In this document: positions 169 through 44,739 of the stretch, piece after piece
Layout: every line of letters begins with the position of its first letter
How positions within the stretch are numbered: the stretch's first letter is position 1
Origin: an uncultured bacterium
Lineage (GTDB): Bacteria > Patescibacteriota > Minisyncoccia > UBA6257 > 2-01-FULL-56-20
Reading direction: 5' to 3'
NCBI GenBank assembly: GCA_963844965.1
Contig: CAWJQC010000004.1
Location: 128,001 to 192,000, forward strand
DNA: 64,000 nucleotides
The notes under the pieces: generated by a model
What the model saw: only the letters and a program-made list of their open reading frames with translations
Told to the model about the DNA's origin: nothing
The model's database searches: none
Made by a program: the position numbers and the translations under genes

Positions 169-489
169 TTATTTGATTTGCTTTATCATCTGTACAAATT
201 TCCGACCTTTCTTCGTTAATCGGTATTCCACGAACGTGCTTTCTTTGGAGCTTTCGATAATGCCTCCGTCGGCCAAATCCTTGAGATGATGGGAGAGGAG
301 GGTTTGCGACAATCCCGTATGCGTTTCGAGGTCGCAGACGCAATGAGGGGCTTTATACAAAAGCGAGAGCATGGCGATTCTGCTTGGGGCGGAAACGAGC
401 TTCATCTGCTCCGCCACGGGGTTGAACTCCGCGAGGTCAACCTTATCGTGAGGCCGTACCTTGCATACACACCGCTTATATATGAACAT
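169..489 (-). CDS. ArsR/SmtB-family HTH transcriptional regulator
   Basis: 106 aa; metal-site/HTH signature CVCDLETHTGLSQTLLSHHLKDL typical of ArsR/SmtB. Confidence 0.75.
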   Translation of the reverse strand: MFIYKRCVCKVRPHDKVDLAEFNPVAEQMKLVSAPSRIAMLSLLYKAPHCVCDLETHTGLSQTLLSHHLKDLADGGIIESSKESTFVEYRLTKKGRKFVQMIKQIK

Positions 490-555
490 GCGTTCATATT
501 ATAGCGATGCCCAGAGTGCGTCAAGTATGACCACGGCCATGCGGCCGTGAGCTAT

Positions 556-1000
556 TTTGGGGGAGGAATTTGGGCGCGCCATACGCGAAGCCCCGAAGCC
601 CGAACAACAGTGAGCGGCTGAGGGGCTGAGCACAGACCCGTTTAGGGGTATTGTCGGGGGTCAGGATTTTTGAGAAAAGCGAGGTCTCGTAAGGGCGGAA
701 TGGCCGTCAGGGTAGTCAATCGTGATTGACGGGGTGATTGACTAGGCAAACCGGAGTGAAGTAGGACTTCTGGTTTTGTCCGGCGAGAGTCAAAAAGCCC
801 AGCGTTTTCAGGGCAATCAGGACTTGCTACCCCTTCATTCCGAGCATACCCGAATGAAGGGGTGAATGAAGGGGTAAATCCGGTGGCTAATCCCTCGGAT
901 TTTCGATAAAATAGGTTCGTACAGCGTTCAGCAACTGCGACAATAAATAAAAACGGCGAGGTAAACTCGTCGCCTTTAGGTCCCACTTTAGACGTCCCGG
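556..1000. repeat. divergent third copy of the ~330-bp element that forms the inverted repeats of the mobile island (32395-32720, 37650-37995); non-coding
   Basis: Shared blocks with IR-R in the same orientation: gaggggc..aggggtattgtcggggg..gaaaagcgaggtc..gggtagtcaatcgtgattgacgggg vs cgaggggcgaagggg..ggaggtattgtcggggg..gaaaggtccgaggcg..ggggtagtcgttctggaacgacccc; several local hairpins; the only ORF is an implausible antisense frame. Confidence 0.45.
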
Positions 1001-1454: not shown

Positions 1455-2777
1455 ATGACCAAAAAAAGGCGGCGAATCATATTTTATACGCTTCTTCTCC
1501 TTTTTATTCTCGCGGGGGCGAGCGTCATTCTGTACGTAAACGGCTGGAGATTCAATTTCACGACATTCAGATTGGGGAAGGTCGGGGCCATATACGTCCG
1601 AAGCTATCCCCCCCAGGCGAACATGTATCTCGGCGGCCGGTCGGTGGAGAACAAATCCGGATTTTTCCAGAAAGGCACTTTCGTGAGCGACCTTTTTCCT
1701 AAGAACTACAAGCTTAAACTCACCCTGGATGGTTACGAAACTTGGGAAGAAAATGTCCCAGTTTTGCCGTCACTCGTGAGCGAGGTGAAATACGCGGTCC
1801 TTATACCGGAAAATTCCCGAATGGCTGCCACGGGGACTTTCAAAAACTTCTGGCTGCTCGGCAGCGGGGCGCTCACGGAAAACGCCGGAAATAATCTGCT
1901 CTACGACGGCAAAAAAATCGGCGCCGGCAGCGCCGCGGGATGGACGAGCGATTTCAAAAATATTCTCATACACAATGAGGCGCTTGGTAGCTATTCCCTG
2001 TACAACACCGACACCGCAAGCAGCACCGACGTGAATCTCCTCCTGAAAAAATCCAAATTCAACACGAAGCAGGATTTTGAAGTTTTCGCGGATTCGGAGG
2101 ACAAGAGAACACTCATAGTCCGGCAGCAGAATAAATTATACGCGCTGAACATCGGGGAGCCGTCGCTCACGAGTATTTACAAAACAAATCTGGAGCTCGG
2201 AGAAAAAATCGTATCGTCCCAATTCTATTACGCCTGGACGGAATGGAATGTCGCGGAAAATACTTCCACCCTTGTCGTTTACGACAAATTTCTGCAAAGA
2301 ATCAGACCGGAACTGCCAGAACTTCACGGCAAAAACTCGGAACTTGAGTGGATAAACGGAACGAACGAGATCGCCTTGCTTCAGGACGACGGCAGTTTAT
2401 ACACCTACGACATTTCAAGCGATAACATGCAAAAAATCGCCGACGACGTGAAAACATTTGCGTTCACGGACGGTGGCGACGCAGTGGCCGCCCTCGAACA
2501 CCGGTCGCTGGAAATCTTCTTCTTCAACGCGGACAAGGATTACTACCGTTTCAATTTGCCGGATGTCGGCCGCGCCGAAAGTATCATCTGGTACTCCGAC
2601 AAGAACCATCTGTTCGTCGTTTACCCCGGCGAGATAAAATTCCTGGACATTCAAGACGCTTCGCTTGATTACTTCCCCGTTGTCGCCGAGGGCCACCTGC
2701 CGCAATATGACGAGAAAAACAACATTCTCTATCTCGTGGCAAACGATGGCCTGAAAACGCTGGATTTTCCGAAGTGA
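1455..2777 (+). CDS. hypothetical membrane-anchored/secreted protein
   Basis: 440-aa ORF with N-terminal TM helix (IIFYTLLLLFILAGASVILYV); no recognisable catalytic motif. Confidence 0.6.
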   Translation: MTKKRRRIIFYTLLLLFILAGASVILYVNGWRFNFTTFRLGKVGAIYVRSYPPQANMYLGGRSVENKSGFFQKGTFVSDLFPKNYKLKLTLDGYETWEENVPVLPSLVSEVKYAVLIPENSRMAATGTFKNFWLLGSGALTENAGNNLLYDGKKIGAGSAAGWTSDFKNILIHNEALGSYSLYNTDTASSTDVNLLLKKSKFNTKQDFEVFADSEDKRTLIVRQQNKLYALNIGEPSLTSIYKTNLELGEKIVSSQFYYAWTEWNVAENTSTLVVYDKFLQRIRPELPELHGKNSELEWINGTNEIALLQDDGSLYTYDISSDNMQKIADDVKTFAFTDGGDAVAALEHRSLEIFFFNADKDYYRFNLPDVGRAESIIWYSDKNHLFVVYPGEIKFLDIQDASLDYFPVVAEGHLPQYDEKNNILYLVANDGLKTLDFPK

Positions 2778-4708: not shown

Positions 4709-5055
4709 TTATTTATCAACGAAGATCAAATTCTTCAACCTTTTTTGATTCAGAAAATTTTTGGGCAGCATGTGGCGCACCGTTTCCCTGAGCGTTTTCT
4801 CCGGATCTTTGGTAAAAACCTGCTCAAAAGTCTTTTCTTTCAGGGTGCCCCATGTAGCCGGTATGGCGATAATAGATCTTCTCTTTGAACTTTTTTCCGG
4901 TAACAACGAGGATCCTTGCAATTTTTCACGTATACTTTGTCACCACCGACGAGCCGCCGCTCGTATTTCGGGCTTTTCTTACCCTGTAAAATCAAAGCTA
5001 TCTCCGAGGCCAGTCGCCCCAATATCTTGTTTTTGGCATCTATGTGATAATCCAC
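4709..5055 (-). CDS. rplM: 50S ribosomal protein L13, GTG start, interrupted by two apparent frameshifts (A5 run ~4923-4927 and C4 run ~4848-4851)
   Basis: Three frames carry consecutive L13 segments: IDAKNKILGRLASEIALILQGK..GDKVYVKN / IARILVVTGKKFKEKIYYRHTGYMG / GTLKEKTFEQ..RHMLPKNFLNQKRLKNLIFVDK. Confidence 0.8.
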
Positions 5056-5058
5056 AGA

Positions 5059-5093
<35 letters not shown>

Positions 5094-5132: not shown

Positions 5133-5486
5133 TTATACGAATTCCACGGCTGCCAGCCGCGAACCGTCCCTTTTTCTGGACTTTTGAAGTTTGATGATCC
5201 TGAGATATCCGCCGGCGCGCGCAGCGTAACGCGGACCCAGTTCTTCATAAATTTTATTGGCGATCCTCGGATTGTGCACGCGTTTCAAGATAAGGCGGCG
5301 TGCCGCCAAATTCTGTTTTTTCGCGATGGTGACGAGGCGCTCCACAACCGGCCTGATGGCCTTAGCTCTCGCCTCGGTAGTTTCAATTCGTCCCACCTTT
5401 ACCAAATCGTTCGCGAGATTGCGTAAAAAAGCACGCCTCTGTCCCCTTAACCTGTGAAATTTTTTCCCTTCTTTTAAATGTCTCAT
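5133..5486 (-). CDS. rplQ: 50S ribosomal protein L17
   Basis: 117 aa MRHLKEGKKFHRLRGQRRAFLRNLANDLV...; typical L17. Confidence 0.9.
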   Translation of the reverse strand: MRHLKEGKKFHRLRGQRRAFLRNLANDLVKVGRIETTEARAKAIRPVVERLVTIAKKQNLAARRLILKRVHNPRIANKIYEELGPRYAARAGGYLRIIKLQKSRKRDGSRLAAVEFV

Positions 5487-5490
5487 AAAC

Positions 5491-5524
5491 TAGAATCTAG
5501 AAAGTAGAATCTAGAAAGTAGAAG
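5491..5524. repeat. GTAGAAAG-type repeats interleaved with TCTAGAAT, upstream of the rplQ start
   Basis: tagaatctagaaagtagaatctagaaagtagaag begins 5 nt after the rplQ start codon (transcript sense upstream). Confidence 0.75.
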
Positions 5525-5569
5525 TCTTAGATTCTATTTTCTATTTTCCATTTTCTAGTTACGGCGCTA

Positions 5570-6337
5570 TTATGATTTCTTCGTTCTGCCGCGCTTCTTC
5601 GGCGCAGCTGCTTCGGCCTCAACTTTCGGCGCTGCGAATTCCTGGACGTTCAACGCCGAGACCTTCTCAAAATGATCTTTCAGGGCATTAGCCGATTTAT
5701 GCAAAGCCGACGACGGACTGATGGTTCCGTCGGTCTCTATCTCAACGCGCAAGCGGTTATAGTCGGTCCTGTCACCGACGCGCATGTTCTCAATTGAATA
5801 ATTGACCCTCTGCACCGGCGTGAAGATGGCGTCAATGGCTATGGTGCCGATGGAAAGCCGGCCTTCCTTCCGCGCCTCGACCGGCGAGTATCCGAGGCCG
5901 CGCTCCACCTTAACCTCCATATCAAGTTCAGCGTCTTTCGCTGTCAAGGTGGCTAGATAACTGTCCGGATTTACAAGTTCAACTTCCGAGCTCATTTTTA
6001 TCTCGCTGGCAGTCACGCCTTTCTCACCCTTTACCTTCAAGGTCAACACTTGTGGTTCATCGGTATGCATGCGGAATCTCAGTTTTTTGAAGTTCAGGCT
6101 TAGCTCTACCAGGTCCTCTTTGACTCCCGGCAAAGTTGAGAACTCATGGGGCGCGTTTTTGATCTTCAGTTCCGTAACGGCCGCGCCCGGCAGAGACGAG
6201 AGAAGCGCCCTTCGGAGCGCGTTGCCGACCGTAAGCCCGTAACCGGCGTATAATCCTTCAATCTCAAAAACGCCGTTTTTCGCGTCCTCGGAAACGGTTT
6301 TTATGGTAACGGTGGAACTTAAGTGAGAATGCTCCAT
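5570..6337 (-). CDS. rpoA: DNA-directed RNA polymerase alpha subunit, N-terminal domain only, with a Lys/Ala-rich tail
   Basis: 255 aa; alpha-NTD motifs (VFEIEGLYAGYGLTVGNALRRALLSS, GVTELKIK); ends AAPKVEAEAAAPKKRGRTKKS with no alpha-CTD; sits between rpsD and rplQ. Confidence 0.85.
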   Translation of the reverse strand: MEHSHLSSTVTIKTVSEDAKNGVFEIEGLYAGYGLTVGNALRRALLSSLPGAAVTELKIKNAPHEFSTLPGVKEDLVELSLNFKKLRFRMHTDEPQVLTLKVKGEKGVTASEIKMSSEVELVNPDSYLATLTAKDAELDMEVKVERGLGYSPVEARKEGRLSIGTIAIDAIFTPVQRVNYSIENMRVGDRTDYNRLRVEIETDGTISPSSALHKSANALKDHFEKVSALNVQEFAAPKVEAEAAAPKKRGRTKKS

Positions 6338-7487: not shown

Positions 7488-7871
7488 TTACTTCAATTCA
7501 ACTTTCCTCTTACCGCTGCCGGCGGTTCTCCGAACGTTTCCGCGGACGGTCCGCGAATTCGTGCGCGTCCGCTGTCCTCTTGAGGGCAGCCGCCGCAAGT
7601 GGCGCGAACCGCGATACGTCTTCAAGTCTTTTAACCTTTGGATATTTCTTTTTATAAGCTGGCGGAGTTCGCCTTCTATCGCGAAATTTTTTTCAACGAT
7701 ATTTTGGACGCGCGCAATCTCTTCGTTCGTGAGCGCGTTCGCCCTTTTATTCATGTCAACTTTGGCCGAACCCAAAATTTTCCGGCTCGCCGGCACGCCT
7801 ATGCCGTAAATATAAGTCAGCGCTATCTCAATTCTTTTATTATCTGGAATGTTAACGCCGAGAATGCGCAT
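7488..7871 (-). CDS. rpsM: 30S ribosomal protein S13
   Basis: MRILGVNIPDNKRIEIALTYIYGIG...KTYRGSRH. Confidence 0.9.
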   Translation of the reverse strand: MRILGVNIPDNKRIEIALTYIYGIGVPASRKILGSAKVDMNKRANALTNEEIARVQNIVEKNFAIEGELRQLIKRNIQRLKDLKTYRGSRHLRRLPSRGQRTRTNSRTVRGNVRRTAGSGKRKVELK

Positions 7872-7873
7872 GC

Positions 7874-7907
<34 letters not shown>

Positions 7908-22145: not shown

Positions 22146-25100
22146 TTACGGCAATTGCGGGATCTGAAGATTCAGAGAAGGGCACATGAGCATGTTGATC
22201 CACCACCTCGTTGTCTTGTAGACGTAACCTGTGGCGATGGTGTTGCTCTTAAGACCGTGCGGTACCCACGGCTCAAGCACCTTAATGTTGTACTTCAACT
22301 GAAATTGTATCACGGCGTTGTACGTCAAACTTCCATAATATCCGGTGACGGGAAGGTTAATCCCCAAATTCTGATTTAGGAATTCCTGAAGTTTTTTCAC
22401 TTCACTTGGATCGTTGTTCGCTCCAAGCTTGATGTAATCTCTGAGGTACATGCCGCAGCTCACTGAAGCGCCGAGTACTTGTCCGCCTGTTTGTCCGCCC
22501 AAAAGCTGAATTGAATCATCGGCAGTCCCGATATCAGTATTGGTTACGGAGCGGTACTTAACATACACGGTCTCCGTACCCTGTGTGGACCCGATAACCC
22601 ACGGCTTAGTGGTAACGTACGGCTCCCATGTGGCGCCGGCGAAATCCGGAGTGTTGGAGAGTTCCATCGTGTACGCGCCTGTTCCGTAAAGGGACAGCGT
22701 CACGCTCGTGGTCGCGGTTGAAGGAGCTCCACTATCAATGGAGATGCTATATGCCGATCCACCGCCGCCACCCAAAACCGTAGAGCCTCCTCCGCCACCT
22801 CCGCCACCGCCTCCACCACAATTTGACGTGCAGGGTGCGGCTTGAACCGCAATCGAAACTGAAGACGAATTATTGGCGGGGTCATCTACAAGTGAATCCA
22901 ATTCCTTGATCGTCGCGGTATTTGTGAGCGTTGTCCCCGCAGTCTGCGGGAGAACCGTCACTGAAATAACGAGTGTTGCCGTGGCGTTCGGTGAGATTGT
23001 TCCGACGCTCCATCCGATGGTAGCGCCCATACTGGAAGTACCCTGTGATGAAGTTATGGAGTTTACGCTCAAGCCGATCGGGAGGATATCGTTTACTACA
23101 ACGTATGTGGAAGTCACGGAACCGAGGTCGGTCGCGGTTAGGGTATATGTTATCGTATCGCCGCCTTTCGGATTTGCATTATCCACCGTCTTTGTGATCG
23201 CGACGTCCGCCGTGTTATTTGCTATTGCCGTTGGCGTGAAGGTCACAGAGCATGTCGTGCTCGCGGAAAGCGTCCCTGCGCAACCGCTGGAAGTCGCAAC
23301 CACGTAGTTGGAACTCGCCGCCGTAACGCCATAGAGGTCATTTGTAGGAAGAACGAACAATCCCGTGCCGTTACCGGTGGACGTTGACTGCGTTGCGGAA
23401 GCCGTTGAATCCAAAACCGTGATCGTCGCGGTATCGCTCGCGTTGAGGCCGCTCACGGAAACCGAGAGTGTGCTTGTCGTGTTTAGGGCAGGCGATCCTC
23501 CGGTCCCCACCAATACAGTTGCGTCTGACGAATTGTTCCCCAAATTAGGATCGGTGGTTGAAGAATTCTCACCGACCGAAGCTGTATTGGTTATCGTCCC
23601 CGTGGCGTTCACCACTGCCGCGATCGCCAATGTCGCCGTAGAGCTCACAGGCATGTCGCCTATCATCCAGCTTCCTGTTGAACTCACGTAGCTTCCTTCG
23701 GAATTGGAAGAAGTGGCATTCAGGAAAGTGAGACCGGAAGGCAGAGTGTCGGTAGCTACTACGCCGGTTGACGTAGAAGGGCCGAGCGCCGTCACGGTAA
23801 GCGTATAGTGAACGGTGCCGCCTTCAACGGTTGAAGTCACGTCGGCCACTTTAGCGATGGAGATGTCGGCGGAAGGAATGGTTGAGGTGGGAGTCGGAAC
23901 CGGCGCGCCGCATGAAGAACCGGCTTCGGTCACGGTGAGCTTGTAAAGCAAACCGGCCGGATTTGACTGAGCCGTAGAGCTCGCCAGACCAAAGTTCGTC
24001 ACCGTAAGCGCCAGATGATTCACACCCTGGTGCACCGCGGATAACGCGTCAACGTGCCCCTCGTTCTCGAGGAAATAGTTGAATTCACCAGAGTTGAGAG
24101 CCACGTCCGTCCCATTCAGCGCCGCATCGTACGAATTATCTGCCGCGATATCAAGATGGGCCGCGAGAGGACCGCCAGTCACCATAAAGTCCTTAGTGAA
24201 TGTGAATGTCTGGTTATGCGCCGGGTCAGTCACGTAAGGCGTCGCCCAAATCCACGTCGCGCCAGGAATTGAGGCGGTCCAACGCGAATCGTAGGGCGTC
24301 GCGACGAGCGCCGCCGAGCTGCCGTTTACCATGTTCGTCGCATCGCTCACGATGACATCCGAACAAGTAGCAGCCGGCGCAGGCGTCGCGGTTATAGACG
24401 ATGTCGCATTGTTGTTTGTCGTGTTCGGATCGGTGGTTGAAGAATTCTCACCGACCGAAGCTGTATTGGTTATCGTCCCCGTGGCGTTCACCACTGCCGC
24501 GATCGCCAATGTCGCCGTAGAGCTCACAGGCATGTCGCCTATCATCCAGCTTCCTGTTGAACTCACGTAGCTTCCTTCGGAATTGGAAGAAGTGGCATTC
24601 AGGAAAGTGAGACCGGAAGGCAGAGTGTCGGTAGCTACTACGCCGGTTGACGTAGAAGGGCCGAGCGCCGTCACGGTAAGCGTATAGTGAACGGTGCCGC
24701 CTTCAACGGTTGAAGTCACGTCGGCCACTTTAGCGATGGAGATGTCGGCGGAAGGAATGGTTGAGGTGGGAGTGGAGGTTGAAATCGCGCCGAGGAACCG
24801 ATTGAGAACGATAAGCTGCCGCGTGGGCCGCGATGCCTCAAGATAGATGTCTCCGTCGGCGTTCGTATTCCTTAGACCATCGTTCGTCGGATCGTTGTCA
24901 AACAATTGCCCGCTGTAGGAGAAAAAATCGGATGTCGCATTTGCGGTAACTGTGTCCTGGTCGTTGTAAAGCGGCATTGCCCAGTTGTAGCTCGAGCTCG
25001 CAATCCGCTCCTCGCCATAGTAATAATGGCCAAGCGCGAGATTGTTGTAAGTCACGCACTGGGCGTTCGCCGCGGACGCGCCGAAAAGCTCTGCGTTCGC

Positions 25101-25670
25101 GGAAAGTGGGGTCGTGAAAACCGCGGTAGGCAGTAATCCTGCCGCAGCGGCCGTTGTTGAGGGCACGGAAACGAAGCCGGGAACCGTAAAGGTCTGCCCC
25201 GGAAACGCCGTGCCGTCCACGACCGTGCCGCTCGCATTCACAATCGCCTTGCAGACGCTTATAGACCCCGTCGTTGGCGCGGGAGGAACGAAGGTATCGG
25301 TGATGACGCAGGTCTTCGCGTCTTTTCTTTCCATCGTTCCCGAACAGTCAGCGGAAAAACCAGCAGTGTAATCCGAACTTGAAGCCTGACTAACGTGGTA
25401 CGTTCCGGTTCCCATTGAGACCAAGGTTCCGGAAGCGGAACCCTGGAACGTTGACGGAGAAGGATTGTCGCCGGAAACCATCACTGTAAAATCGGAGGCG
25501 GATTTGGTGCCGCCACCGGTGTTCACGACGTTCACGACAACTGTAAGCTTGGCGCAAGAATCAGAATCCTCGCCGCAACTGCATGCATATGTTTTTGTCG
25601 CCGCGAGGATCGCCGACCAGAGAAGAATTCCAGTAATAATCAGACCTGTAATCGCAATCTTTCTTTTCAT
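22146..25670 (-). CDS. giant surface protein (1174 aa): signal peptide, two DUF11-type repeat domains, poly-Gly linker, C-terminal peptidoglycan-binding domain
   Basis: The unit ADVTSTVEGGTVHYTLTVTALGPSTSTGVVATDTLPSGLTFLNATS...NTASVGENSSTTDPN occurs twice; CGGGGGGGGGGG run; C-terminal LQEFLNQNLGINLPVTGYYGSLTYNAVIQFQ matches the PG_binding_1 signature. Confidence 0.8.
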   Translation of the reverse strand: MKRKIAITGLIITGILLWSAILAATKTYACSCGEDSDSCAKLTVVVNVVNTGGGTKSASDFTVMVSGDNPSPSTFQGSASGTLVSMGTGTYHVSQASSSDYTAGFSADCSGTMERKDAKTCVITDTFVPPAPTTGSISVCKAIVNASGTVVDGTAFPGQTFTVPGFVSVPSTTAAAAGLLPTAVFTTPLSANAELFGASAANAQCVTYNNLALGHYYYGEERIASSSYNWAMPLYNDQDTVTANATSDFFSYSGQLFDNDPTNDGLRNTNADGDIYLEASRPTRQLIVLNRFLGAISTSTPTSTIPSADISIAKVADVTSTVEGGTVHYTLTVTALGPSTSTGVVATDTLPSGLTFLNATSSNSEGSYVSSTGSWMIGDMPVSSTATLAIAAVVNATGTITNTASVGENSSTTDPNTTNNNATSSITATPAPAATCSDVIVSDATNMVNGSSAALVATPYDSRWTASIPGATWIWATPYVTDPAHNQTFTFTKDFMVTGGPLAAHLDIAADNSYDAALNGTDVALNSGEFNYFLENEGHVDALSAVHQGVNHLALTVTNFGLASSTAQSNPAGLLYKLTVTEAGSSCGAPVPTPTSTIPSADISIAKVADVTSTVEGGTVHYTLTVTALGPSTSTGVVATDTLPSGLTFLNATSSNSEGSYVSSTGSWMIGDMPVSSTATLAIAAVVNATGTITNTASVGENSSTTDPNLGNNSSDATVLVGTGGSPALNTTSTLSVSVSGLNASDTATITVLDSTASATQSTSTGNGTGLFVLPTNDLYGVTAASSNYVVATSSGCAGTLSASTTCSVTFTPTAIANNTADVAITKTVDNANPKGGDTITYTLTATDLGSVTSTYVVVNDILPIGLSVNSITSSQGTSSMGATIGWSVGTISPNATATLVISVTVLPQTAGTTLTNTATIKELDSLVDDPANNSSSVSIAVQAAPCTSNCGGGGGGGGGGGSTVLGGGGGSAYSISIDSGAPSTATTSVTLSLYGTGAYTMELSNTPDFAGATWEPYVTTKPWVIGSTQGTETVYVKYRSVTNTDIGTADDSIQLLGGQTGGQVLGASVSCGMYLRDYIKLGANNDPSEVKKLQEFLNQNLGINLPVTGYYGSLTYNAVIQFQLKYNIKVLEPWVPHGLKSNTIATGYVYKTTRWWINMLMCPSLNLQIPQLP
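23548..23894. repeat. ~347-bp direct repeat inside the giant surface-protein gene (copy 1)
   Basis: Near-identical to 24427-24774; encodes the duplicated DUF11 repeat. Confidence 0.85.
24427..24774. repeat. ~347-bp direct repeat inside the giant surface-protein gene (copy 2)
   Basis: Near-identical to 23548-23894. Confidence 0.85.
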
Positions 25671-30191: not shown

Positions 30192-30977
30192 TTAAAGCTG
30201 ATATTTTCGCTTAAACCTTTTTATCGCCTCTCTAGCGCCAGGCAAAGCTGTGGTGTTGTACAACTTACTTAGGTTGTCAAGAAAACTCGGACCAAATGAT
30301 TCCTCAAATAATTTAACAACGTCCTGGTTTTCAAGCGTCTCCCCGTTCAATAAAGCCTGCACCAATGCCTCCCAACACACGCGCTCGCTCTGCTGATTCT
30401 TAGTTGCCAACCTCTTTACCATGGCATTGACTAAAGAAACTTCTAGGTTATAGGAAAATCCTTGATCGCTTGCGACTGCCGTTTTGTATGCACTTACCCG
30501 ATCCTCGGGCCATCTTGATCGCTCTGCGTAAGCCACGGTGATTTCCCTGGAGAGCTTTTCCACTACGCCCTCGTTAAGCGCATCGAACAAGCAGCCGAAA
30601 TTACTGTTGCGGTATATGCTGCTGACTCGGCCCGACCTTCGGAAGTTGATGCCTTCTTCGCCCAACTTTCGAAACAGGCCGGATTGTTTATAGTCTACGT
30701 ATTCTTCGGTTCTTCGATCTGGGTGTTCGTAGGTATTCCACATACAGATATTTCGACTTACTGCATGCGTTTCCTCGTGTGCCAGCACAGCAAGCTGTAT
30801 TAACTCTGCCCCTCCGCATTTTTCAAGTTTCGCTTTTGCTGACTTCCGCCTTTTCGGATCCAAGTCAGAATAATCATCAACACGGCTAAGCACAATGACG
30901 TTGTTTTCCGGATTGTAGCTATGACCTGGACCCGCTATTTTAGACACAAAGGTCGAAACCAAGTACCATTGTGTCAT
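30192..30977 (-). CDS. HExxH-motif putative metallopeptidase-like protein
   Basis: AVLAHEETHAV zinc-binding motif; start trimmed to MTQWYLV because the upstream part of the ORF is antisense to the recombinase. Confidence 0.5.
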   Translation of the reverse strand: MTQWYLVSTFVSKIAGPGHSYNPENNVIVLSRVDDYSDLDPKRRKSAKAKLEKCGGAELIQLAVLAHEETHAVSRNICMWNTYEHPDRRTEEYVDYKQSGLFRKLGEEGINFRRSGRVSSIYRNSNFGCLFDALNEGVVEKLSREITVAYAERSRWPEDRVSAYKTAVASDQGFSYNLEVSLVNAMVKRLATKNQQSERVCWEALVQALLNGETLENQDVVKLFEESFGPSFLDNLSKLYNTTALPGAREAIKRFKRKYQL

Positions 30978-32394
30978 GACTAACAAAAAGGGGCATCGTA
31001 TCCCCATGCTCCGCCGCATTGAGCGGGGCGAGGCGCAGGGTATCATCTGTTGGAAACTAGATCGAGTGGCACGCAATATGCAGGACGGCGGAAAGACCAT
31101 TGAACTCCTTAAACAAGGAGTGATCCAACATATTCGTGCCTTCGCAAGCAGTTACTATCCGCAAGACAACGTGCTCCTCATGTGCATAGAGTTCGGCATA
31201 GCTGACCAATATGTTCGCGATTTAAGTGCTAACACTTCGCGCGGATTGAGATACAAAGCAAGCTTGGGTATCTACCCCGGCCTCGCCCCGTTCGGATATA
31301 TAAACGATCCACAGACCAAGACCGTTATCGTAAACCGCAAGAACGCAAAGCTCGTCAAAAAAACTTTTGAGATTTACGCGACGGGCAAAGTCCGCCTTGA
31401 AAATCTTGCCGATCTTTGGGAGAAGGCGGGCGTCATGTCTAAAGGCAACCGTCGCGTCCATATTTCAAGAATGTCTTTCATTCTGCAAAATCCTTTCTAC
31501 TACGGACACTTTCGTTATTGCGGCGAGATACACGAAGGCAAGCATGAGCCAATCATTACGAAAGACCTCTACGATAAAGCGAACGCTGTCCTGCGAAGCC
31601 GAGGCCGTGTGCCGGACATTAAGAACGACCCAAGCCCTTACTGCGGCCTCCTGCGGTGCGGCGAGTGCGGTATGGGTATTACGGCCGAGGACAAGACAAA
31701 GCACCAAAAGAACGGCAACGTCCACCACTACGTTTATTACCGTTGTACCCGCAAATCGAAGACGCACAAGTGCCACGAAGCACCCGTGCGGAGCGAGATA
31801 CTGGATCGGCAGTTGTCGGCTCTTATCGCCGACTACGCCATGCCCAAAGAGTGGGTAGCCCCTTTGTCGGCTATGCTCGACCAAGAGGCCATAAACGCCA
31901 AACAGACGGCGTCGGTGGCCGTTCAAGAGTTGCGGGAGCAGGTGCAAGACCTTACCCGCGACCTCGCCAGACTTACCGATGTCTATGTTGCACAAGACAT
32001 AGAGCGAGATGACTACCTTGAGAGGCGTCGTTCGCTCATGTCGGAAAAGAAGTCCGTCGAGGAGCAAATAGCCCGTCTTGAACGAACCCCCTCCGCGTGG
32101 ATTGAACCTGCCCGAAGTTGGATTCGGGACGCTTCAATACTGGACGAAACAGCAAAAAACTTCGACCTCCCCTCCAAAAAACTCTCCCTCCAAAAAATCT
32201 TCGGATTGAACCTCTTTCTTAAAAACCGTCGTATCGAATTTAACCCCATCAAACCTTACGCTTCGCTCCGCGAAGCGCGCGTAAATTTTTCTGAAACTGA
32301 CTTACCTTTGAAACTGGAGCGGGTAACGGGAATCGAACCCGTGTGTCAACCTTGGCTCCGTCACCATAAGAAGGACTGCTTGCTTTTTCCGTGA
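30976..32394 (+). pseudogene. large serine recombinase lacking the N-terminal catalytic-serine segment (truncated paralog of the 43135 gene)
   Basis: Aligns to the intact paralog from GEAQGIICWKLDRVARN onward (zinc ribbon CGECGM..YYRCTRKSK, coiled coil, C-terminal ERVTGIEP); no YARKST.D..Q active-site region upstream; the 3' end is a degenerate tRNA-3'-half-like sequence. Confidence 0.7.
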
Positions 32395-32720
32395 GTGTAT
32401 TTACAACACCGCTTGGACTTATTTTAACAAAAAACTCTGACTTTGGCGAGGCCGGAAGGGGTCGTTGAGGGGGTCGTTCCAGAACGACTACCTTTTGAAT
32501 TGAAAATACTCGGCGAGCACTGGCTTCTCTGCCTCTCGCGGAGTTTTTTCTTACCCCCGACAATACCTCCTTTGAGGAGGTTGAAGGTTGCCCCTTCGCC
32601 CCTCGCCTGCTGGCTCGGGGCTCGGGGCTTATATTGTTGTGGGCTGGATGCGCTAATTTTCCTCGGCTCCGCTCTCCTTGGCCGAGTTGAAAAACACGAA
32701 CCGCAGTTGATGCGCGCGGG
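32395..32720. repeat. ~330-bp element, left inverted-repeat copy (IR-L), starting at the recombinase stop codon
   Basis: Reverse complement matches 37650-37995 at roughly 85% identity (e.g. cccccgacaatacctcc / ggaggtattgtcggggg). Confidence 0.8.
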
Positions 32721-32800
32721 TGGGAGAGAAACTTTGAGCCAAGGAGGAGCGGAGGCCTCGGAAAATCGGCCTCTTACTGATATAATGAATATATAATGCT

Positions 32801-33673
32801 ATGCCGAAACATACCAGCAAAAAATTTGTCAGAAGCCCAGACAATGGCGGCCGATTGCGCATCCAGCCCAGCGACGTCGCGCTCCTCCGCGATTTGTCGG
32901 AATATCGTTTCCTGAACACCGAGCAGGTTTTGGCCCTGCACCACCGAGGTTTGCGCAACCTCCAACGCCGCTTGCACGATTTGTACCACGCGGGGTATCT
33001 TGAACGCCCTCCCCAGCAGAACATCTCCGCTCTGCCGAAAGGTCATATCGTTTACGGCTTGGGGGCGAAGGGTGCGGAGCTTCTTTATGAAAATCGGGAG
33101 GAGCGCGCCGAAAAACTCCGGCAAGTGAAGCTGAACCGCGAGACAACGTTTCCCTACATCGCCCACGCTTTGATGATTTCCCAGTTCCGCGCGGCCTTGA
33201 CACTGGCGGCGGAAAAAACCGGAGGGAAGATGAAAGTTGCGAGATGGCGACAGGGCTTTGAATTGAAAAACTATTTGAAGCTCCGCGGCGGAACTCCCGA
33301 ACTCATGCCGGACGCGTTTTTCGCGATTGAACAGGGCGACAGACGCTGGAACTTGTTTTTGGAAACCGACCGCTCCACGATGACACTTGACCGGTTTTTG
33401 GTAAAGCTCAAAACATACTGGAAATGGTGGTGGGAGGAAAAATACAAAGAACAGCTCGGCATCTCGCACTTCCGCGTGCTTACCATAACCATTTCCGAAG
33501 AACGGAAGGAGAACCTTCTCCGCGTCGCCAAAAACGCCGACCCGAGAAGGCAAGGGAGCAACATGTTTTTGTTTATTTCCGAAAAAGAGTTTTCGCTGAA
33601 GAAGCCGGAGGCGGTGTTGTCTCCGGTGTGGCTTTCGCCGAGAGACGGATTGAAACATTCGTTTCTTGAATAA
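32801..33673 (+). CDS. replication-relaxation family protein (plasmid/ICE-type)
   Basis: 290 aa; N-terminal wHTH (LLRDLSEYRFLNTEQVLAL) and core PDAFFAIEQGDRRWNLFLETDRSTMTLDRFLVKLKTYWKWW typical of that family. Confidence 0.7.
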   Translation: MPKHTSKKFVRSPDNGGRLRIQPSDVALLRDLSEYRFLNTEQVLALHHRGLRNLQRRLHDLYHAGYLERPPQQNISALPKGHIVYGLGAKGAELLYENREERAEKLRQVKLNRETTFPYIAHALMISQFRAALTLAAEKTGGKMKVARWRQGFELKNYLKLRGGTPELMPDAFFAIEQGDRRWNLFLETDRSTMTLDRFLVKLKTYWKWWWEEKYKEQLGISHFRVLTITISEERKENLLRVAKNADPRRQGSNMFLFISEKEFSLKKPEAVLSPVWLSPRDGLKHSFLE

Positions 33674-33733
33674 ATTAGCGGCGGCCACGAGGTCGAAGCG
33701 GCCGCCAGTTTTTTAAAAAGTTCCCTATACTTT

Positions 33734-34492
33734 ATGCCGCATACGCCGACGACAACGACAATAATCGTGGGCGCGCTCATGGTCATCGCCACCGCGCTTT
33801 TTTGCGTCGCGGCTTATTTTGTCATCAAATACGCGCTCCGCTTCGTCGGAAAAATGTTCAGCTTCGTAAACGAGGTGGCAAACATCGTCAGGGAAAGGAA
33901 AGACCGGTATCTTGTTGGGCCGGTTTGGGGATGGGACATACAAGACCGGATAGAAGAATGGGACAAGCCGGACGAGGAGTGGTCGGTTATGGTCGAAGGA
34001 GCGGCGGGATACGGCGAAGAATTTTTGGAGCGCGTCGCTCGCCGCGCGCTTGACGAAAACATTCCCCGGCTTGTGGTGAGAAAGCGGATTGTCTGGCCGT
34101 ATCTGCGCCGAAAATGGCAACCGGTTCTTGTGATAACCAACAAGAAAATAAAGGGCTATCAAATGCTGATTGACGCGACAGACTACACCGACCGCCTTGA
34201 TGTTTGGTGGCGAGTTGATAAAGGCGACCGCGACCAACTGCCCTTGAGAGGGGCGGAAATACGGGAAAAGAGATTCGGGCTCGATTCGTCGGGCGTTCTT
34301 GAAGCCCAAGCCCAACAAGAGAAAAACTGGGTATTTCCCGAACAGATGACCGCTCTCGACAAGCAGGAGTGGGACAACTGCACTGGTTTGGTGCGCGATA
34401 TTGTCAGAGCCGAGGTAAAACGGATGGCGGACGAAGTTCGTATCGGCGGCGGCGTGGCTGGCGGCGCGAAGGGATTTATTGACATCAACTAA
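33734..34492 (+). CDS. membrane-anchored hypothetical protein, 14-nt overlap with the downstream T4CP-like ATPase
   Basis: N-terminal TM helix IIVGALMVIATALFCVAAYFVI; translationally coupled to the next gene. Confidence 0.55.
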   Translation: MPHTPTTTTIIVGALMVIATALFCVAAYFVIKYALRFVGKMFSFVNEVANIVRERKDRYLVGPVWGWDIQDRIEEWDKPDEEWSVMVEGAAGYGEEFLERVARRALDENIPRLVVRKRIVWPYLRRKWQPVLVITNKKIKGYQMLIDATDYTDRLDVWWRVDKGDRDQLPLRGAEIREKRFGLDSSGVLEAQAQQEKNWVFPEQMTALDKQEWDNCTGLVRDIVRAEVKRMADEVRIGGGVAGGAKGFIDIN

Positions 34493-36071
34493 CTATGAAA
34501 AACGGATTTTTAAAAACAATTTTGGACTGGATACTGGACTGGCGTTATCCGCTCCCGCCCCCGCCGGAGCCGGACTTGCCTCTTTTTCCGAGCAGTCGGA
34601 GGAACCGATGGCGGACAAATTCAAACTGCCGAGGCCCAACGAGCTTGTTCTCGGCAGTACGACAACCAAAGGGCCGGACGGCAAGGCAGAAGGCAAGACA
34701 AAGGGCGTGTCGCAGGACGACCGCTCGACCCATTTTTACGTGGTGGGAGCGACCGGCACGGGCAAGACGAAATTTTTGGAAACCCTAATCTTGCAGGACG
34801 CGATGAACGCGCACGGCTTTGGCATCGTGGACGCGCAGGGCGATTTGACGGAAGACATCAAGAGCTATCTTTTCATTCTTACCTTCCCAAACGAACCGGA
34901 GGAAACCGCCGAATTTGAAAAAGATTCGGAAAAAGCCCTCAAAAAAATTAAAAGATTTTTGAGCGAACGCGTCGTGCTGATAGACCCGTCCGACAGGGAA
35001 AGAACTGTTTGCTTTAATCCGCTTGAAAAAGTGGAGGGGCTTTCGCCCGCCGGAATCGCGAGCGAAGCAGTGGAGGCGTTCAAGAAAATCTGGCATGACG
35101 CTTGGGGCGCGAGAATGGAAGACCTGCTCAAAAATTCTCTGATAGCCCTCGTCGAGAACGACCTCACCCTCGCCGAACTTCCCCTGTTTCTTTCCGACAT
35201 CGGGGCGAGAAAAAAGATTCTGAAAAAAGTCATCCATCCCGTCTGCCGCCAGTATTTTGAAAAGTTCAATTCTTTGAGGTCGTCGTTGCAGGACGAGTGG
35301 GCGGAATCAACTCTGAACAAGGCCCGCGCCTTCATGTCCAACGACCACGTGCGGCAGATGCTCTCGGCGGTTAAAAGCACTTTCAACTTCCGCGACATAA
35401 TGGACGACCGGAAAATTCTGCTGGTGAAGCTGAATCGCGGAAAATTGAAGGGCGACGCCGACCTGCTCGGCTCTTTGCTTCTCTCCAAAATCCAGATGGC
35501 CGCCTTTTCTCGGACGGACGTTCCGCAATCCGAACGCGTGCCGTTTTATCTTTACATCGATGAGTTTCAGAATTTTGCGACCGAGAGTTTTATCCAAACG
35601 CTCGCCGAAGCGAGAAAGTATGGCCTGTCGATTACGCTGGCTCATCAGAATCTCGCCCAGCTACCGCCGTCCCTGCGGGCGTCGATACTCTCCAACTGCG
35701 GCTTGCAGGCGTACTTCCGCATCTCGCGCGACGACGCGAACATGCTAGCTAGGGAATCTCTCGCTTCCGTTTACGAAGAGCCGCCCGGCTGGGAGTTTTA
35801 CGTCCGCTCGCTTCAAGAACTGCCGAGGCGCGAGTGCGTGATAAAACATAAAATCGCGGGAGGCGTGATTGCCGTCCACACCATCGGACTGCCTACCCCT
35901 TGGGAATGGGCGAAGATGGACGAAAAGAAATTCTCGGAGGGACTGGCCGCGATGAATACCGGCGGCGCGTACATGCGCAAGCGCGAGGACATAGAGAAAG
36001 AATATCGGTCGAGGCAAGAGGCCCTCCGATTTATGGACGAGCCGGAGAGTTTCTGGGAGCGGAAGGTTTAA
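34479..36071 (+). CDS. VirD4/TraG/TraD-like type IV coupling-protein-type ATPase (soluble domain only)
   Basis: Walker A VVGATGTGKTKF; Walker B YLYIDEFQNFATE; ARKYGLSITLAHQNLAQL motif characteristic of T4CP/TraD-like ATPases. Confidence 0.65.
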   Translation: MTSTNYEKRIFKNNFGLDTGLALSAPAPAGAGLASFSEQSEEPMADKFKLPRPNELVLGSTTTKGPDGKAEGKTKGVSQDDRSTHFYVVGATGTGKTKFLETLILQDAMNAHGFGIVDAQGDLTEDIKSYLFILTFPNEPEETAEFEKDSEKALKKIKRFLSERVVLIDPSDRERTVCFNPLEKVEGLSPAGIASEAVEAFKKIWHDAWGARMEDLLKNSLIALVENDLTLAELPLFLSDIGARKKILKKVIHPVCRQYFEKFNSLRSSLQDEWAESTLNKARAFMSNDHVRQMLSAVKSTFNFRDIMDDRKILLVKLNRGKLKGDADLLGSLLLSKIQMAAFSRTDVPQSERVPFYLYIDEFQNFATESFIQTLAEARKYGLSITLAHQNLAQLPPSLRASILSNCGLQAYFRISRDDANMLARESLASVYEEPPGWEFYVRSLQELPRRECVIKHKIAGGVIAVHTIGLPTPWEWAKMDEKKFSEGLAAMNTGGAYMRKREDIEKEYRSRQEALRFMDEPESFWERKV

Positions 36072-36081
36072 CCGCGCCTAT

Positions 36082-36111
36082 TTGACAAACCGGACTTGAA
36101 AATGGTATCTT
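36082..36111 (+). promoter_or_regulatory. candidate sigma-70 promoter
   Basis: TTGACA (36082-36087), 18-nt spacer, TATCTT (36106-36111). Confidence 0.3.
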
Positions 36112-36267
36112 CTCCCCAGTTTCATTACCCCCGCCGTCCGCGCTAAAGCGGTGCGGCGGGAAAGCGGAACGCGAGGGAGATCGCGCTCTCGCCCGTTCCC
36201 TTGGATGGCTCCTCCTCGAACCGCCGAGAAGAAGGAATGAAACTTTTTCATAATAAAGAGTACAATA

Positions 36268-36300
36268 AAAGGACGTCACGGGACGTCCTTTTATTTTTTT
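36268..36300 (+). terminator. rho-independent terminator
   Basis: aaaggacgtc-acgg-gacgtcctt followed by ttattttttt. Confidence 0.5.
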
Positions 36301-36354
36301 GAACTGGAACATCTCGCAACCGAAATAGAGCCGCTCGGCAAAACCACCTTCCAC

Positions 36355-37597: not shown

Positions 37598-37649
37598 ACC
37601 ATTTTTCATGTTTTTTTTCCTCGGCCTTGCGGCCTGAGCGGATTTTCTT

Positions 37650-37995
37650 TTTTTGTTTTCCTTCCCACCCGCGCGTAGAATACGATTCGGTTTTTTCAAC
37701 TCGGCCAAGGAGAGCGGAGCCGAGGAAATACGCTAGAGACAGCCCAGCATACAATAGTAAGTCCCGAGCCCCGAGCAGCAGCGAGGGGCGAAGGGGCAAA
37801 CCTTCACCCTCCCAAAAGGAGGTATTGTCGGGGGTGTCGAAAGGTCCGAGGCGGAGCGAAGAAGCCAATATCAGCGGAGTAATTTCAATTCACGGGGTAG
37901 TCGTTCTGGAACGACCCCCTCAACGACTCCTTCGGGCCTCGCCAAAGTCAGAGATTTTGGTTAAAATAAGTCCAAGCGGTGTTGTAAATACACTC
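37650..37995. repeat. ~330-bp element, right inverted-repeat copy (IR-R)
   Basis: Reverse complement of IR-L; outer end ...gtaaatacactcc abuts the recombinase-3'-end duplicate. Confidence 0.8.
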
Positions 37996-38140: not shown

Positions 38141-38244
38141 GGTAAGGGGGTCGCAGATAAAGATATAATGCTTGCCCCGCCCTTCCCGTGCGCGCATTAT
38201 GTATTTTTGCCGATTTTGAAATCGGCAACTCCCTTATAACGATT

Positions 38245-43134: not shown

Positions 43135-44739
43135 ATGGTATCAAAAAATACACCGCACGTAAATACCTATTTTCTCTACGCCCGCAAATCCACCGACGTT
43201 GAAGACAAGCAAGTCCGGTCTATTGAGGACCAGCTTGCCGTATTGCGGGCGTTGGCCAAAGGCGAAGGACTAACTATCGCCAGAGAGTTTATTGAGCGGC
43301 AATCGGCCAAGAAGCCGGGCCGCCCCGCTTTTAACGAAATGCTCGCCTTGATTGAAAAAGGCGAAGCGCAAGGAATCCTCTGTTGGAAACTTGACCGCTT
43401 GGCTCGCAATCCGGTTGATAGCGGCCGCATATCTTGGCTCTTACAGCAGGGCGTTATCCGGCACATCCAAACGCACGACCGAAGCTTTTATCCTACGGAC
43501 AATGTTTTGATGACGAGCGTAGAGTTCGGGATGGCGAACCAGTTTATCCTTGATTTGAAAGTGAACACCAAACGCGGCCTTGACGCCAAAGCCAAGCGCG
43601 GCGACTATCCGGGCCATGCTCCCATCGGCTACATCAACGACACCCGCGTAAAGCTCGTGGCCGTTGATAAAAGGAAATCCAAAATTATCAGGCGCGCGTT
43701 TGAACTCTACGCCGAGGGCAACTGGCGTTTGGAAGACGCCGCCAAATTCCTTTTGGAGAACGGTATTAAAACGAAAGGCGACAAACCCTTGTCGCGCGAC
43801 CGAATCTCTTATCTCTTGACCAATCCTTTTTATTACGGCAATTTCCGCTACAACGGGGAACTTTACGAAGGCAATCACGAGCCGATAATTACGAAGCAAC
43901 TTTTTGACAAAGTTCAGGCGGCGTTGAAAGCGCGAAGCAAGCCGCCCTCAAGTCCCGCCAATCACCCGCAAGCTCTTTGCGGGGCTATCCGGTGCGGCAC
44001 TTGCGGCATGATGATAACCGCCGAGCGTAAGATAAAACACCAGAAAAACGGCAATGTCCACGAATACACTTATTATCGTTGTACCCGCAAGAACAAAGCG
44101 ATCCGGTGCTCCGAGCCGCCTATCCGCGAGGACGCGCTTAATCGGCAGTTATCGAACCTTATCAAAAAGTATGCTTTGCCGGACGATTGGGCGGCGGAGC
44201 TATTAAAAATGTCCGAGCGGGACGAACAGGAAGCCGCCCAATCAACGACCGCCCTCGTCCGAGAGGCGCGGGACGAGATACAGGCCATTTCTCAAAAACT
44301 CCAACGCCTTCTTGACGCATATCTTGACCAAGATATTGAGCGGGAAAGCTACCGCTTCGAGAAGGCAAACCTTCTCTCCCGCAAGAAGTCGTTGGAGGAG
44401 AAAATCGGCAATTTGGAGCAAGGGGCGATTGCTTGGGTTGAACCCCTGCGCGATTGGATAAAAGACGCTCAAACGCTGAACGAAATGACGGAAACGACCC
44501 CCTTACCCCTCAAAAAATCGTTCGCTCAAAAAATTTTCGGATTGAACCTGACACTCCACGCGCGCGAAGCGCGCGGTTTTGCGGAAAAACAATGGGCTTC
44601 CATTGTGGAAGCCCATTGTTCGGTGAATAAAAAACCTTTAAGTTGTGTTATGGAGCGGGCGAAGGGAATCGAACCCTCGTCTATAGCTTGGGAAGCTATC
44701 GTACTGCCACTGTACTACGCCCGCAAGATAGCCCACTAA
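43135..44739 (+). CDS. large serine recombinase (integrase), intact; 3' end overlaps tRNA-Gly in antisense
   Basis: 534 aa; catalytic N-domain YARKSTDVEDKQVRSIEDQ, recombinase domain, zinc ribbon CGTCGM..YYRCTRKNK, coiled coil; last ~30 codons are antisense to tRNA-Gly. Confidence 0.85.
   Translation: MVSKNTPHVNTYFLYARKSTDVEDKQVRSIEDQLAVLRALAKGEGLTIAREFIERQSAKKPGRPAFNEMLALIEKGEAQGILCWKLDRLARNPVDSGRISWLLQQGVIRHIQTHDRSFYPTDNVLMTSVEFGMANQFILDLKVNTKRGLDAKAKRGDYPGHAPIGYINDTRVKLVAVDKRKSKIIRRAFELYAEGNWRLEDAAKFLLENGIKTKGDKPLSRDRISYLLTNPFYYGNFRYNGELYEGNHEPIITKQLFDKVQAALKARSKPPSSPANHPQALCGAIRCGTCGMMITAERKIKHQKNGNVHEYTYYRCTRKNKAIRCSEPPIREDALNRQLSNLIKKYALPDDWAAELLKMSERDEQEAAQSTTALVREARDEIQAISQKLQRLLDAYLDQDIERESYRFEKANLLSRKKSLEEKIGNLEQGAIAWVEPLRDWIKDAQTLNEMTETTPLPLKKSFAQKIFGLNLTLHAREARGFAEKQWASIVEAHCSVNKKPLSCVMERAKGIEPSSIAWEAIVLPLYYARKIAH
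44651..44724 (-). tRNA. tRNA-Gly (anticodon CCC)
   Basis: 74 nt: GCGGGCG-TA-GTAC-AGTGGCA-GTAC-G-ATAGC-TTCCCAA-GCTAT-AGAC-GAGGG-TTCGATT-CCCTT-CGCCCGC-T-CCA; perfect acceptor stem; CCA encoded. Confidence 0.85.

Follow-up and report, generated by a model that had tools for sequence, protein, structure and literature searches.

The PF13814 relaxases are scored as MOBC by CONJscan, and the combination of a serine integrase, a MobC relaxase and VirD4 constitutes a known class of integrative mobilizable elements (PMC5357655). The MOBC prototype TraX binds direct repeats located 70–120 bp from the nicking site, nic (PMC12857230). In plasmids of the IncX (R6K-type) group, long inverted repeats harbor two origins of transfer (oriTs), of which one is next to the relaxase gene; this arrangement has so far been called unique to IncX (PMC3402527). 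Relaxase-less chromosomal oriT copies, termed iOriTs, are common, and defense genes cluster near oriTs (bioRxiv 10.64898/2026.01.13.699239, Ares-Arroyo et al. 2026 preprint). In R388 (MOBF), the hairpin IR2 of the nic region leads into a single-stranded stretch that is strictly conserved (PMC4176350), and in SGI1 a small RNA, sgm-sRNA, is encoded between a mobilization gene and oriT and is required for transfer (PMC9299015). Here we describe a modular non-coding element that occurs three times in a 64-kb stretch of contig CAWJQC010000004.1 from an uncultured member of the Patescibacteria (the whole stretch is hereafter the window): twice in an island, as the inverted copies IR-L and IR-R, and once as a solo copy among core genes. 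We favor, with slightly better than even confidence, the interpretation that this family is the oriT-comprising region of mobilizable islands with a serine integrase, a MOBC relaxase and VirD4, and that the solo copy is an orphan. We found no published description of the element.

A sequence-only reading of the window had proposed that the solo region is a divergent copy of the island element, and this was borne out by a profile that contains no window sequence at all. This decisive profile was built from eight relaxase-upstream regions of other contigs. Searched against the window, it produced exactly three matches: 32798–32393 on the minus strand (IR-L, E=6e-46), 37646–37995 on the plus strand (IR-R, E=1e-35), and 575–927 on the plus strand (the solo copy, E=1e-18). 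The same reading had described about 70% identity between the copies with a shared order and orientation of blocks. The order and orientation were confirmed by collinear blocks in a MAFFT alignment, whereas blastn alone gave a single 77-nt block at 71% identity (E=0.06), which is unconvincing. The hairpin that it had quoted, gggtagtcaatcg/tgattgacgggg, was located at 710–733, and the quoted counterpart, ggggtagtcgttc/gaacgacccc, at 37894–37918 in IR-R and also within the hairpin triple of IR-L. The invariant 15-mer GGTATTGTCGGGGGT occurs within the window at 647, 32553 (minus strand) and 37821 only.

Relatives of the element were gathered by pattern scans of genome and metagenome collections, and copy counts cover the 64 kb of this genome together with 8-kb pieces of the relatives, which are referred to by handles such as L052. 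Assembly errors at repeats are possible in the metagenomic loci, and many contigs end inside the element. Ten relaxase loci were compared, namely the window and nine fetched contigs with relaxase homologs at 49–63% identity. In all ten Patescibacteria loci, the element occupies the first intergenic region upstream of the PF13814/MOBC relaxase gene, and in all ten it is oriented divergently, with its leader beside that gene. These upstream regions are conserved, as demonstrated by their alignment and by nhmmer E values of 1e-49 to 1e-88 among members. When oriT is defined operationally as the first intergenic region of more than 50 nt upstream of the relaxase, IR-L and the nine other loci fall under the definition directly, and the solo copy does so by homology only. 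The oriT interpretation is supported because position and orientation match this operational definition, which is used for discovering new oriTs. Further support comes from the family assignment of the relaxase, the recovery of all three window copies by the independent profile, the oriT-like layout of hairpins, motifs and repeats, the motif types that follow relaxase clades, the recurring inverted pairs, and a suggestive strand asymmetry, the element strand folding 11 kcal/mol better than its complement.

The ten relaxases form four clades, and the type of core motif in the adjacent element differs by clade: GGTATTGTCGGGGGT in the window/L148 clade, TATATTGTC(A/G)TTTTC in the L152/L154 clade, a GAGTGTAGTAGGAG-like motif in the L150/L151/L153 clade, and GGAGTGAAGT(A/C)GG in the L155/L156 clade. 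The solo copy joins the first of these types (647–661) to the last (753–769), so that it combines the units of two relaxase clades, and its second unit closely resembles the single unit beside the L155 relaxase. The core motif of this second unit, GGAGTGAAGTAGGACTT, is invariant across the solo-type subfamily and also adjoins the relaxases of L155 and L156.

All members share a common build, consisting of a stem-rich leader, one or two units of about 130 nt, and a tail with a T-run and a TAAAAT-like box whose position is kept in all copies. The leader is a tiered stem of the form AGCCCC..GCCC../..GGGC..GGGGCT. An invariant core motif opens each unit; it is either GGAGTGAAGTAGGACTT or, preceded by a small hairpin, GGTATTGTCGGGGGT. 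A hairpin whose 3' arm recurs exactly 12 nt downstream closes the unit. IR-L and IR-R contain one unit, and the solo copy, L052-A and L052-B contain two. Relaxase-proximal copies possess an additional inner part beside the relaxase promoter boxes, comprising a large inverted repeat with a C-rich motif in its loop; equivalents of this repeat are found in L148–L156, and it is absent from the solo copy. Three of the ten loci (window, L152 and L156) have a second, inverted copy after the last gene of the relaxase/coupling-protein module, with an identity to the proximal copy of 100% in L152, about 97% in L156 and about 90% in the window. The edges of these inverted repeats are sharp, the inner one at the C-rich motif and the outer one about 45 nt past the TAAAAT box. 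A terminator-like hairpin, CNCGGCC-NNGC-GGCCNNG, with T's after it lies ahead of the distal copies.

Eleven near-full solo-type copies, 76–94% identical, were recovered, together with more distant members in L053, L054, L062 and L141. L052, taken from an 888-kb chromosome of a metagenome-assembled genome (OY970382.1), carries two copies, one of which is 94% identical to the solo copy and lies in a different neighborhood. The two L052 copies (2000–2409 on the minus strand and 5340–5700) have an identical 75-nt leader and different unit sets, and they flank a 794-aa open reading frame (ORF) without a family match. The solo copy of the window combines the upstream hairpin of one L052 copy with the units of the other.

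The arrangement of arm and repeat at the end of each unit was quantified by counting triples, defined as an arm, a 2–16 nt loop, the perfect complement, 5 nt, and a copy. Element sequence totaling 14.3 kb contains 26 triples, versus 14 in the other 1.05 Mb, and 25 of the 26 lie on the element strand. The proposal that hairpins are kept despite sequence drift held up, as 16 different arm heptamers occur and all are still complementary. Triple arms often stay within one motif family (GAACGAC, GATTGAC, AACGACT, AATAACT), and the repeat types include GAACGAC, GATTGAC and GAATGAAGGGG. In L077 and L109, the direct repeats are identical to each other yet mismatched to the 5' arm, a pattern for which iterated binding sites are no worse an explanation than a helix. 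Covariation among the direct repeats is at least as good as that between them and the 5' arm.

The solo copy is situated in a non-coding gap of 965 nt (490–1454). The sequence-only reading had given its extent as 556–1000, of which the end was slightly too generous; the element spans approximately 559–941. The copy had also been placed between an ArsR gene and a housekeeping gene; the ArsR-type neighbor is correct, whereas the gene on the right encodes a PEGA-domain protein and true housekeeping genes lie further on. The surroundings consist of core genes, with SPFH, rpoA, S4, S11 and AlaRS beyond the PEGA gene. No relaxase gene adjoins the solo copy. Two features of relaxase-proximal copies are missing from it, namely the C-rich motif and, of the large inverted repeat, the 5' arm; its start corresponds to the 3' arm of that repeat. 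The terminator-like hairpin of distal copies also precedes it, which gives the solo copy the look of a distal-type copy. Neither an integrase nor an att repeat was found near it, and the interval 930–1460 on its 3' side yielded no integrase or tRNA remnant; not being inside an att- or integrase-delimited island, it falls outside the definition of an iOriT. A shared insertion site with L148, where an SPFH gene is likewise nearby, was rejected, as the SPFH proteins are just 21% identical. Coordinates of the solo copy, the island copies and the associated genes are collected in Table 1.

Table 1. Positions of the element copies, their parts and associated genes in the window
Feature	Position	Strand	Remarks
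Solo element, entire	559..941	+	Leader, two units and tail; nhmmer, alignments
Terminator-like hairpin before solo copy	532..549	+	CACGGCC-ATGC-GGCCGTG, then AGCTATTTTG; immediately 5' of solo copy
Solo leader stem	589..627	+	AGCCCCGAAGCC / GGCTGAGGGGCT; tiered helix, GAA internal loops
Solo small hairpin and unit-1 core motif	635..661	+	GACCC-GTTTA-GGGG leading into 15-mer GGTATTGTCGGGGGT (647–661)
Solo hairpin triple 1	713..744	+	TAGTCAATC, GTGATTGAC (722–730), GTGATTGAC (734–742); period 12 nt
Solo unit-2 core motif	753..769	+	GGAGTGAAGTAGGACTT; alignments
Solo hairpin triple 2	828..876	+	TACCCCTTCATTC, 11-nt loop, GAATGAAGGGGT (852–863), GAATGAAGGGGT (864–875)
Solo tail	903..941	+	T-rich run and TCGATAAAAT box (outward-facing, extended -10-like); terminal motif to ~941
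ArsR-type regulator	169–489	-	Left neighbor of solo gap
ArsR promoter-like site	524–496	-	
PEGA-domain protein gene	1455–2777		Right neighbor of solo gap
IR-L	32393..32798	-	Relaxase-proximal copy, divergent from relaxase gene
IR-L large inverted repeat	32667–32682 / 32738–32754		55 nt between arms
IR-L C-rich motif	32712–32724		In loop of large inverted repeat
IR-L 15-mer	32553–32567	-	
IR-L hairpin triple	32458–32492	-	
IR-L tail box	32421–32430	-	
IR-R	37646..37995	+	Distal inverted copy after degraded second ATPase gene
IR-R C-rich motif	37664–37675		IR-R start
Terminator-like hairpin before IR-R	37620–37638		5' of IR-R
MOBC-type relaxase	32801..33673	+	Pfam Replic_Relax PF13814, E=1.8e-25; 90.6 bits, cut-off 25.3
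VirD4/TraD-like type IV coupling protein	34479..36071	+	
Large serine recombinase	43135..44739	+	3' end overlaps tRNA-Gly(CCC)
tRNA-Gly(CCC)	44651–44724	-	
Displaced tRNA-Gly 3' fragment	32315–32355		78% to real tRNA; marks other island end

The right-hand island of the window extends over approximately 32356–44650 and contains, in order, IR-L, the relaxase, a 252-aa ORF, the coupling protein, a degraded second ATPase, IR-R, a duplicate of the recombinase 3' end, a Ppl gene, a restriction-modification pair, and the recombinase. The cargo beside IR-R (38245–42861) comprises a Ppl-type defense protein (PHP + ATPase, PADLOC E=1e-33) and a Tsp45I-type type II restriction-modification pair. A second large serine recombinase gene, 30976–32394, is without the first ~55 residues of the resolvase domain, and its end overlaps the tRNA-Gly fragment; we infer that two islands lie in tandem, what looks like an older one beside the relaxase-bearing one. 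Directly after IR-R, a 161-nt perfect inverted duplicate of the serine recombinase 3' end, including the last 5 nt of tRNA-Gly, was observed (37993–38153 versus 44495–44655), and it could also be an assembly artifact. An outer layout in which the tail is followed by a tRNA-Gly fragment or a recombinase-3'-end remnant recurs in L062, L052-B, L140, L152 and L156. Such remnants suggest repeated recombinase-mediated events at the outer edge of the element.

Under the oriT interpretation, the relaxase would bind sequence-specific sites, namely the ~15-nt core motif that follows a hairpin and the repeats spaced at 12 nt in the triple, and would nick the strand that reads 5' to 3' away from its own gene. 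The 15-mer GGTATTGTCGGGGGT is a candidate nic or recognition site. The nicked strand would then fold into the conserved hairpins and pass to the coupling protein, with the mobilization genes entering the recipient last. In the classical layout mobilization genes likewise enter last, and the position and orientation of the element match this layout. A second inverted copy would close the module, giving rise to the long-inverted-repeat arrangement. The solo copy, which retains the leader stem, two units of two clades and the tail, would have lost the relaxase and its promoter as well as the large inverted repeat of proximal copies, and it would be either a hitch-hiking oriT usable by a relaxase in trans or the surviving distal end of a decayed module. 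The resident relaxase may be able to use it in trans, because it has the exact 15-mer of that relaxase's clade, although the 12-nt repeats of the solo copy are not those of the island.

The locus was compared with the described systems in terms of both shared and divergent features. In oriT2 of pAD1/pAM373 with TraX, a relaxase of the same PF13814/MOBC superfamily is likewise partnered with a TraG/VirD4-like coupling protein, and the oriT consists of an inverted repeat and short direct repeats that the relaxase binds. A large inverted repeat of the pAD1 type is present in IR-L, and the 12-nt-spaced repeats are candidate counterparts of the direct repeats. The sequences are unrelated. pAD1 has five direct repeats; in the present element, each unit has two or three with a period of 12 nt and, in addition, an inverted copy. 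Modular units of two motif types, a second inverted element copy, a Patescibacteria host and integration by a serine recombinase are further differences. The two inverted copies, one beside the relaxase gene (window, L152, L156), recall the IncX arrangement, although the IncX relaxase TaxC is an HUH enzyme and IncX is a plasmid rather than an integrated island. With R388, the element shares a hairpin of free sequence directly followed by an invariant motif of about 10–15 nt, but TrwC belongs to the HUH enzymes, the fold of MOBC relaxases is that of a restriction endonuclease (PD-(D/E)XK), and the motif here is only a candidate for the cut.

The parallel with iOriTs is that the solo copy is a chromosomal, relaxase-less copy of a relaxase-upstream region, that the first conserved intergenic region upstream of the relaxase is taken as oriT-comprising, and that defense genes (Ppl and the Tsp45I-type restriction-modification pair by IR-R) lie near the presumed oriT. 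In contrast to iOriTs, the solo copy resides among core genes, where neither an integrase nor an att site was seen, is cut off at the relaxase-proximal side, and belongs to another phylum. The concepts of an oriT region, a long-inverted-repeat double oriT and an orphan oriT are already known; what they leave unexplained are the two-unit composites, the triple with its fixed 12-nt spacing and the pairs that resemble cassettes.

Several observations weigh against the oriT interpretation. No mating-pore genes were seen in the island. The best plasmid match of the relaxase is 31% identical and no relative was found in the PDB; the protein is only remotely related to the MOBC relaxases that have been studied, and MOBC oriTs are themselves poorly known. 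The number of repeats per unit is two or three, not five as in pAD1. Solo-type copies are without the C-rich motif and the large inverted repeat, and if nic lay there, these copies would be dead. The bias of pairing departures toward G.T, described below, amounts to about five independent events. The octamer GTATTGTC, which we take to be common to the 15-mer and the R388 nic region, may be shared by chance. Finally, solo-type copies are numerous and often form inverted pairs around unrelated gene sets of 2.5–4 kb, which a plain oriT leaves unexplained, and in L080 (1688–1738) two gene sets unrelated to each other are separated by a head-to-head junction of two truncated leaders (GGGGAGGAATTTTGGC, 19 nt, GCCAAAATTCCTCCCC). 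Collectively, the alternatives to oriT account for a little less than half of the probability.

Two of these alternatives rank highest among them and are, in our judgment, equally improbable. The first holds that the element is a structured non-coding RNA gene carried on islands, for example a mobilization regulator like the SGI1 sgm-sRNA, with the solo copy as an extra or degenerate copy. The precedent is a small RNA located between a mobilization gene and oriT (PMC9299015), and a non-coding function in this position would be shared. In addition, the stems are kept with some compensatory changes: the middle tier of the leader stem shows four pair types across the family, GCCCC:GGGGC, GTCCC:GGGAC, GCCAC:GTGGC and GACAC:GTGTC. 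In the close alignment of solo-type copies, 96% of cells are paired versus 38–50% in slid controls, and the covariation test on this alignment was weakly positive, with 5 pairs changed on both sides, a result matched by 7/500 shuffles. Most stem pairs are, however, invariant within the solo-type subfamily and therefore uninformative. Where pairing is imperfect, the mismatches are mostly G.T on the element strand; such G.U-compatible changes fall on one strand, and this strand folds to -74.6 kcal/mol (z=-2.9). The complementary strand also folds better than shuffles (-63.1 kcal/mol, z=-2.1), and the strand asymmetry of folding and G.T is suggestive, not significant.

Further evidence on the RNA alternative comes from database searches and from the borders of the element. 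At gathering thresholds, Rfam reported only tRNA-Gly in the whole window; over 400–1500, even at E<=10, it returned nothing relevant, the best match being far below threshold. A scan for tRNA and transfer-messenger RNA (tmRNA) likewise found tRNA-Gly alone in the window. The sequence-only reading had failed to support tmRNA, RNase P, signal recognition particle RNA or group II intron identities by eye, in agreement with the lack of any Rfam match to them in the window. No consistent promoter box for the element strand was found between the relaxase gene and the leader, and no terminator at the 3' border; the sole promoter-like box faces outward at the very end. Whereas sgm-sRNA has mapped promoters and processing, here a terminator-like hairpin and T-run directly precede the solo and distal copies. 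The duplication of the 3' arm at a fixed 12-nt period, with duplicates tracking each other in L077 and L109, suits binding sites better than an RNA helix. The earlier reading had left the choice between a structured RNA and a protein-binding site open. The evidence leans toward a DNA site because of the relaxase linkage in 10/10 loci, the terminator-like hairpin rather than a promoter upstream, the 12-nt repeats, the covariation of the direct repeats, and the clade-specific motif. If the oriT interpretation is right, one false lead would be removed, in that the region would not be an unknown housekeeping RNA.

The second of these improbable alternatives regards the copies as the long inverted repeats at the ends of a cassette with swapped content, or as its recombination substrates, recognized by a serine recombinase or used for homologous inversion or exchange, with the solo copy as a leftover end. 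Inverted pairs with sharp edges, 90–100% identical within a locus (window, L152, L156), agree with this explanation, and it accounts better than oriT for the L080 stubs and for the solo-type pairs around unrelated cargo in L052, L073, L080, L085, L120 and L145. The head-to-head stubs of L080 may be a recombination scar separating cassettes. Moreover, large serine recombinase genes or their 3' remnants abut the outer edge of IR-L, IR-R, L052-B, L062, L077, L125, L140, L152 and L156. Conversely, the proximal copy stands alone in seven of the ten relaxase loci within the DNA fetched, no target-site duplication flanks the L152 pair, and the element accompanies the relaxase gene with no recombinase nearby in L150, L151, L153 and L155. 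Large serine recombinases also need only sites of about 40–50 bp, not structured arms of 350 bp.

Somewhat less probable again is a transcriptional control region, in which the relaxase operon would be autoregulated through operator arrays, with the flanking integrase or tRNAs under an outward promoter, leaving the solo copy as a stray module. The large inverted repeat lies beside duplicated TATAAT boxes of the relaxase promoter, and a TGnTAAAAT-like box is present at the outer end of all copies. This outer end faces a serine recombinase gene in L077, L125, L140 and L156, and tRNA genes in L152 and L153. The promoter boxes are, however, consensus matches only, and roughly 300 nt of conserved hairpins and motifs between two promoter regions have no obvious regulatory need. 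Such a role would in any case be compatible with oriT, since oriTs usually overlap relaxase promoters.

As a separate observation on the tail, L153 (5310–5560) has an intact tRNA-Phe and tRNA-Gly(GCC) after it, in the same orientation and about 50 nt past the TAAAAT-like box. In L152, several tRNA-like genes on the reverse strand, 3' of the proximal copy, similarly follow the tail in the same orientation about 50 nt past the box. The predicted tail promoter may drive the tRNAs in these two loci.

The weakest alternative, which we consider very unlikely, is that solo-type copies are functionless selfish intergenic repeats (BOX-, REP- or MITE-like) derived from relaxase-linked sequence: they are modular with a variable number of internal ~130-nt units, several can occur within a few kb, many contigs break inside them, and the 94%-identical copy of the related genome L052 has a different neighborhood, but there are only three copies in the 64 kb of the window and no linked transposase, and invariant motifs and intact triples persist in copies only ~80% identical overall, which speaks for constraint. 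The BOX elements of Streptococcus pneumoniae have a modular intergenic boxA-(boxB)n-boxC build with stable hairpins. The variable number of internal units and the hairpins are thus shared, whereas BOX comprises more than 100 dispersed copies that are not tied to relaxase genes and the present element is relaxase-linked.

Other identities were rejected on direct grounds. A CRISPR-like array, an integron attC site, an IS200/REP element, and an omega or bridge RNA have no matching protein gene linked here, and the relaxase linkage explains the pattern. The minus-strand ORF 642–1064 was judged non-coding, as its counterpart in the 94%-identical L052 copy differs by a frameshift and mostly non-synonymous changes. 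Mini-ORFs in the 12-mers (ATG AAG GGG TGA) are not kept in other arm types. Viral contigs scanned with the 15-mer gave 42 chance matches and no homolog.

If the oriT interpretation is correct, the family would provide the first candidate oriT architecture for MOBC-type mobilizable islands of the Candidate Phyla Radiation. The 15-nt core, the 12-nt repeats and the long-inverted-repeat layout could then be used to find mobilizable DNA in metagenomes, and chromosomal regions such as that beside the solo copy would be predicted to be exportable by the resident relaxase. A bolder and doubtful extension, to which we give marginally more credence than to any single alternative above, is that the two-unit orphans are dual-specificity transfer origins with one unit per relaxase clade and that, as inverted pairs, they delimit exchangeable cassettes in Patescibacteria genomes. 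Any resident mobilizable island could in that case export, invert or swap neighboring chromosomal genes, so that organisms regarded as poor in mobile DNA would have a cassette system driven by relaxases. In a variant of this idea, the arm-complement-copy triple would be a new signal for single-strand initiation or loading, located on the strand that is transferred.

Several additional features of the window were recorded. On the minus strand at 953–985, a hairpin GGCGACGAG-TTTAC-CTCGCC followed by GTTTTTATTTATT resembles an intrinsic terminator and has no gene upstream; promoter-like sites lie 5' of it at 1165–1137 and 1333–1304 on the same strand. A small transcript of this strand may lie between the PEGA gene and the solo copy. 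A palindromic element, CCCCCACACC...GGTGTGGGGG, is present at 1165–1232, in the gap 3' of the solo copy, and again at 63583–63656 and 63859–63883. The two latter copies are inside an ORF of alanine-racemase-type appearance close to the end of the window and give the impression of an in-frame insertion of a small hairpin repeat. A perfect 300-nt direct repeat (23545–23844 and 24424–24723, 879 nt apart) is contained within a 1174-aa ORF at 22146–25670. Runs of (TAGAAAG)n occupy intergenic gaps around rpoA/S4/S11 at 5030–5092, 5461–5523 and 7845–7907.

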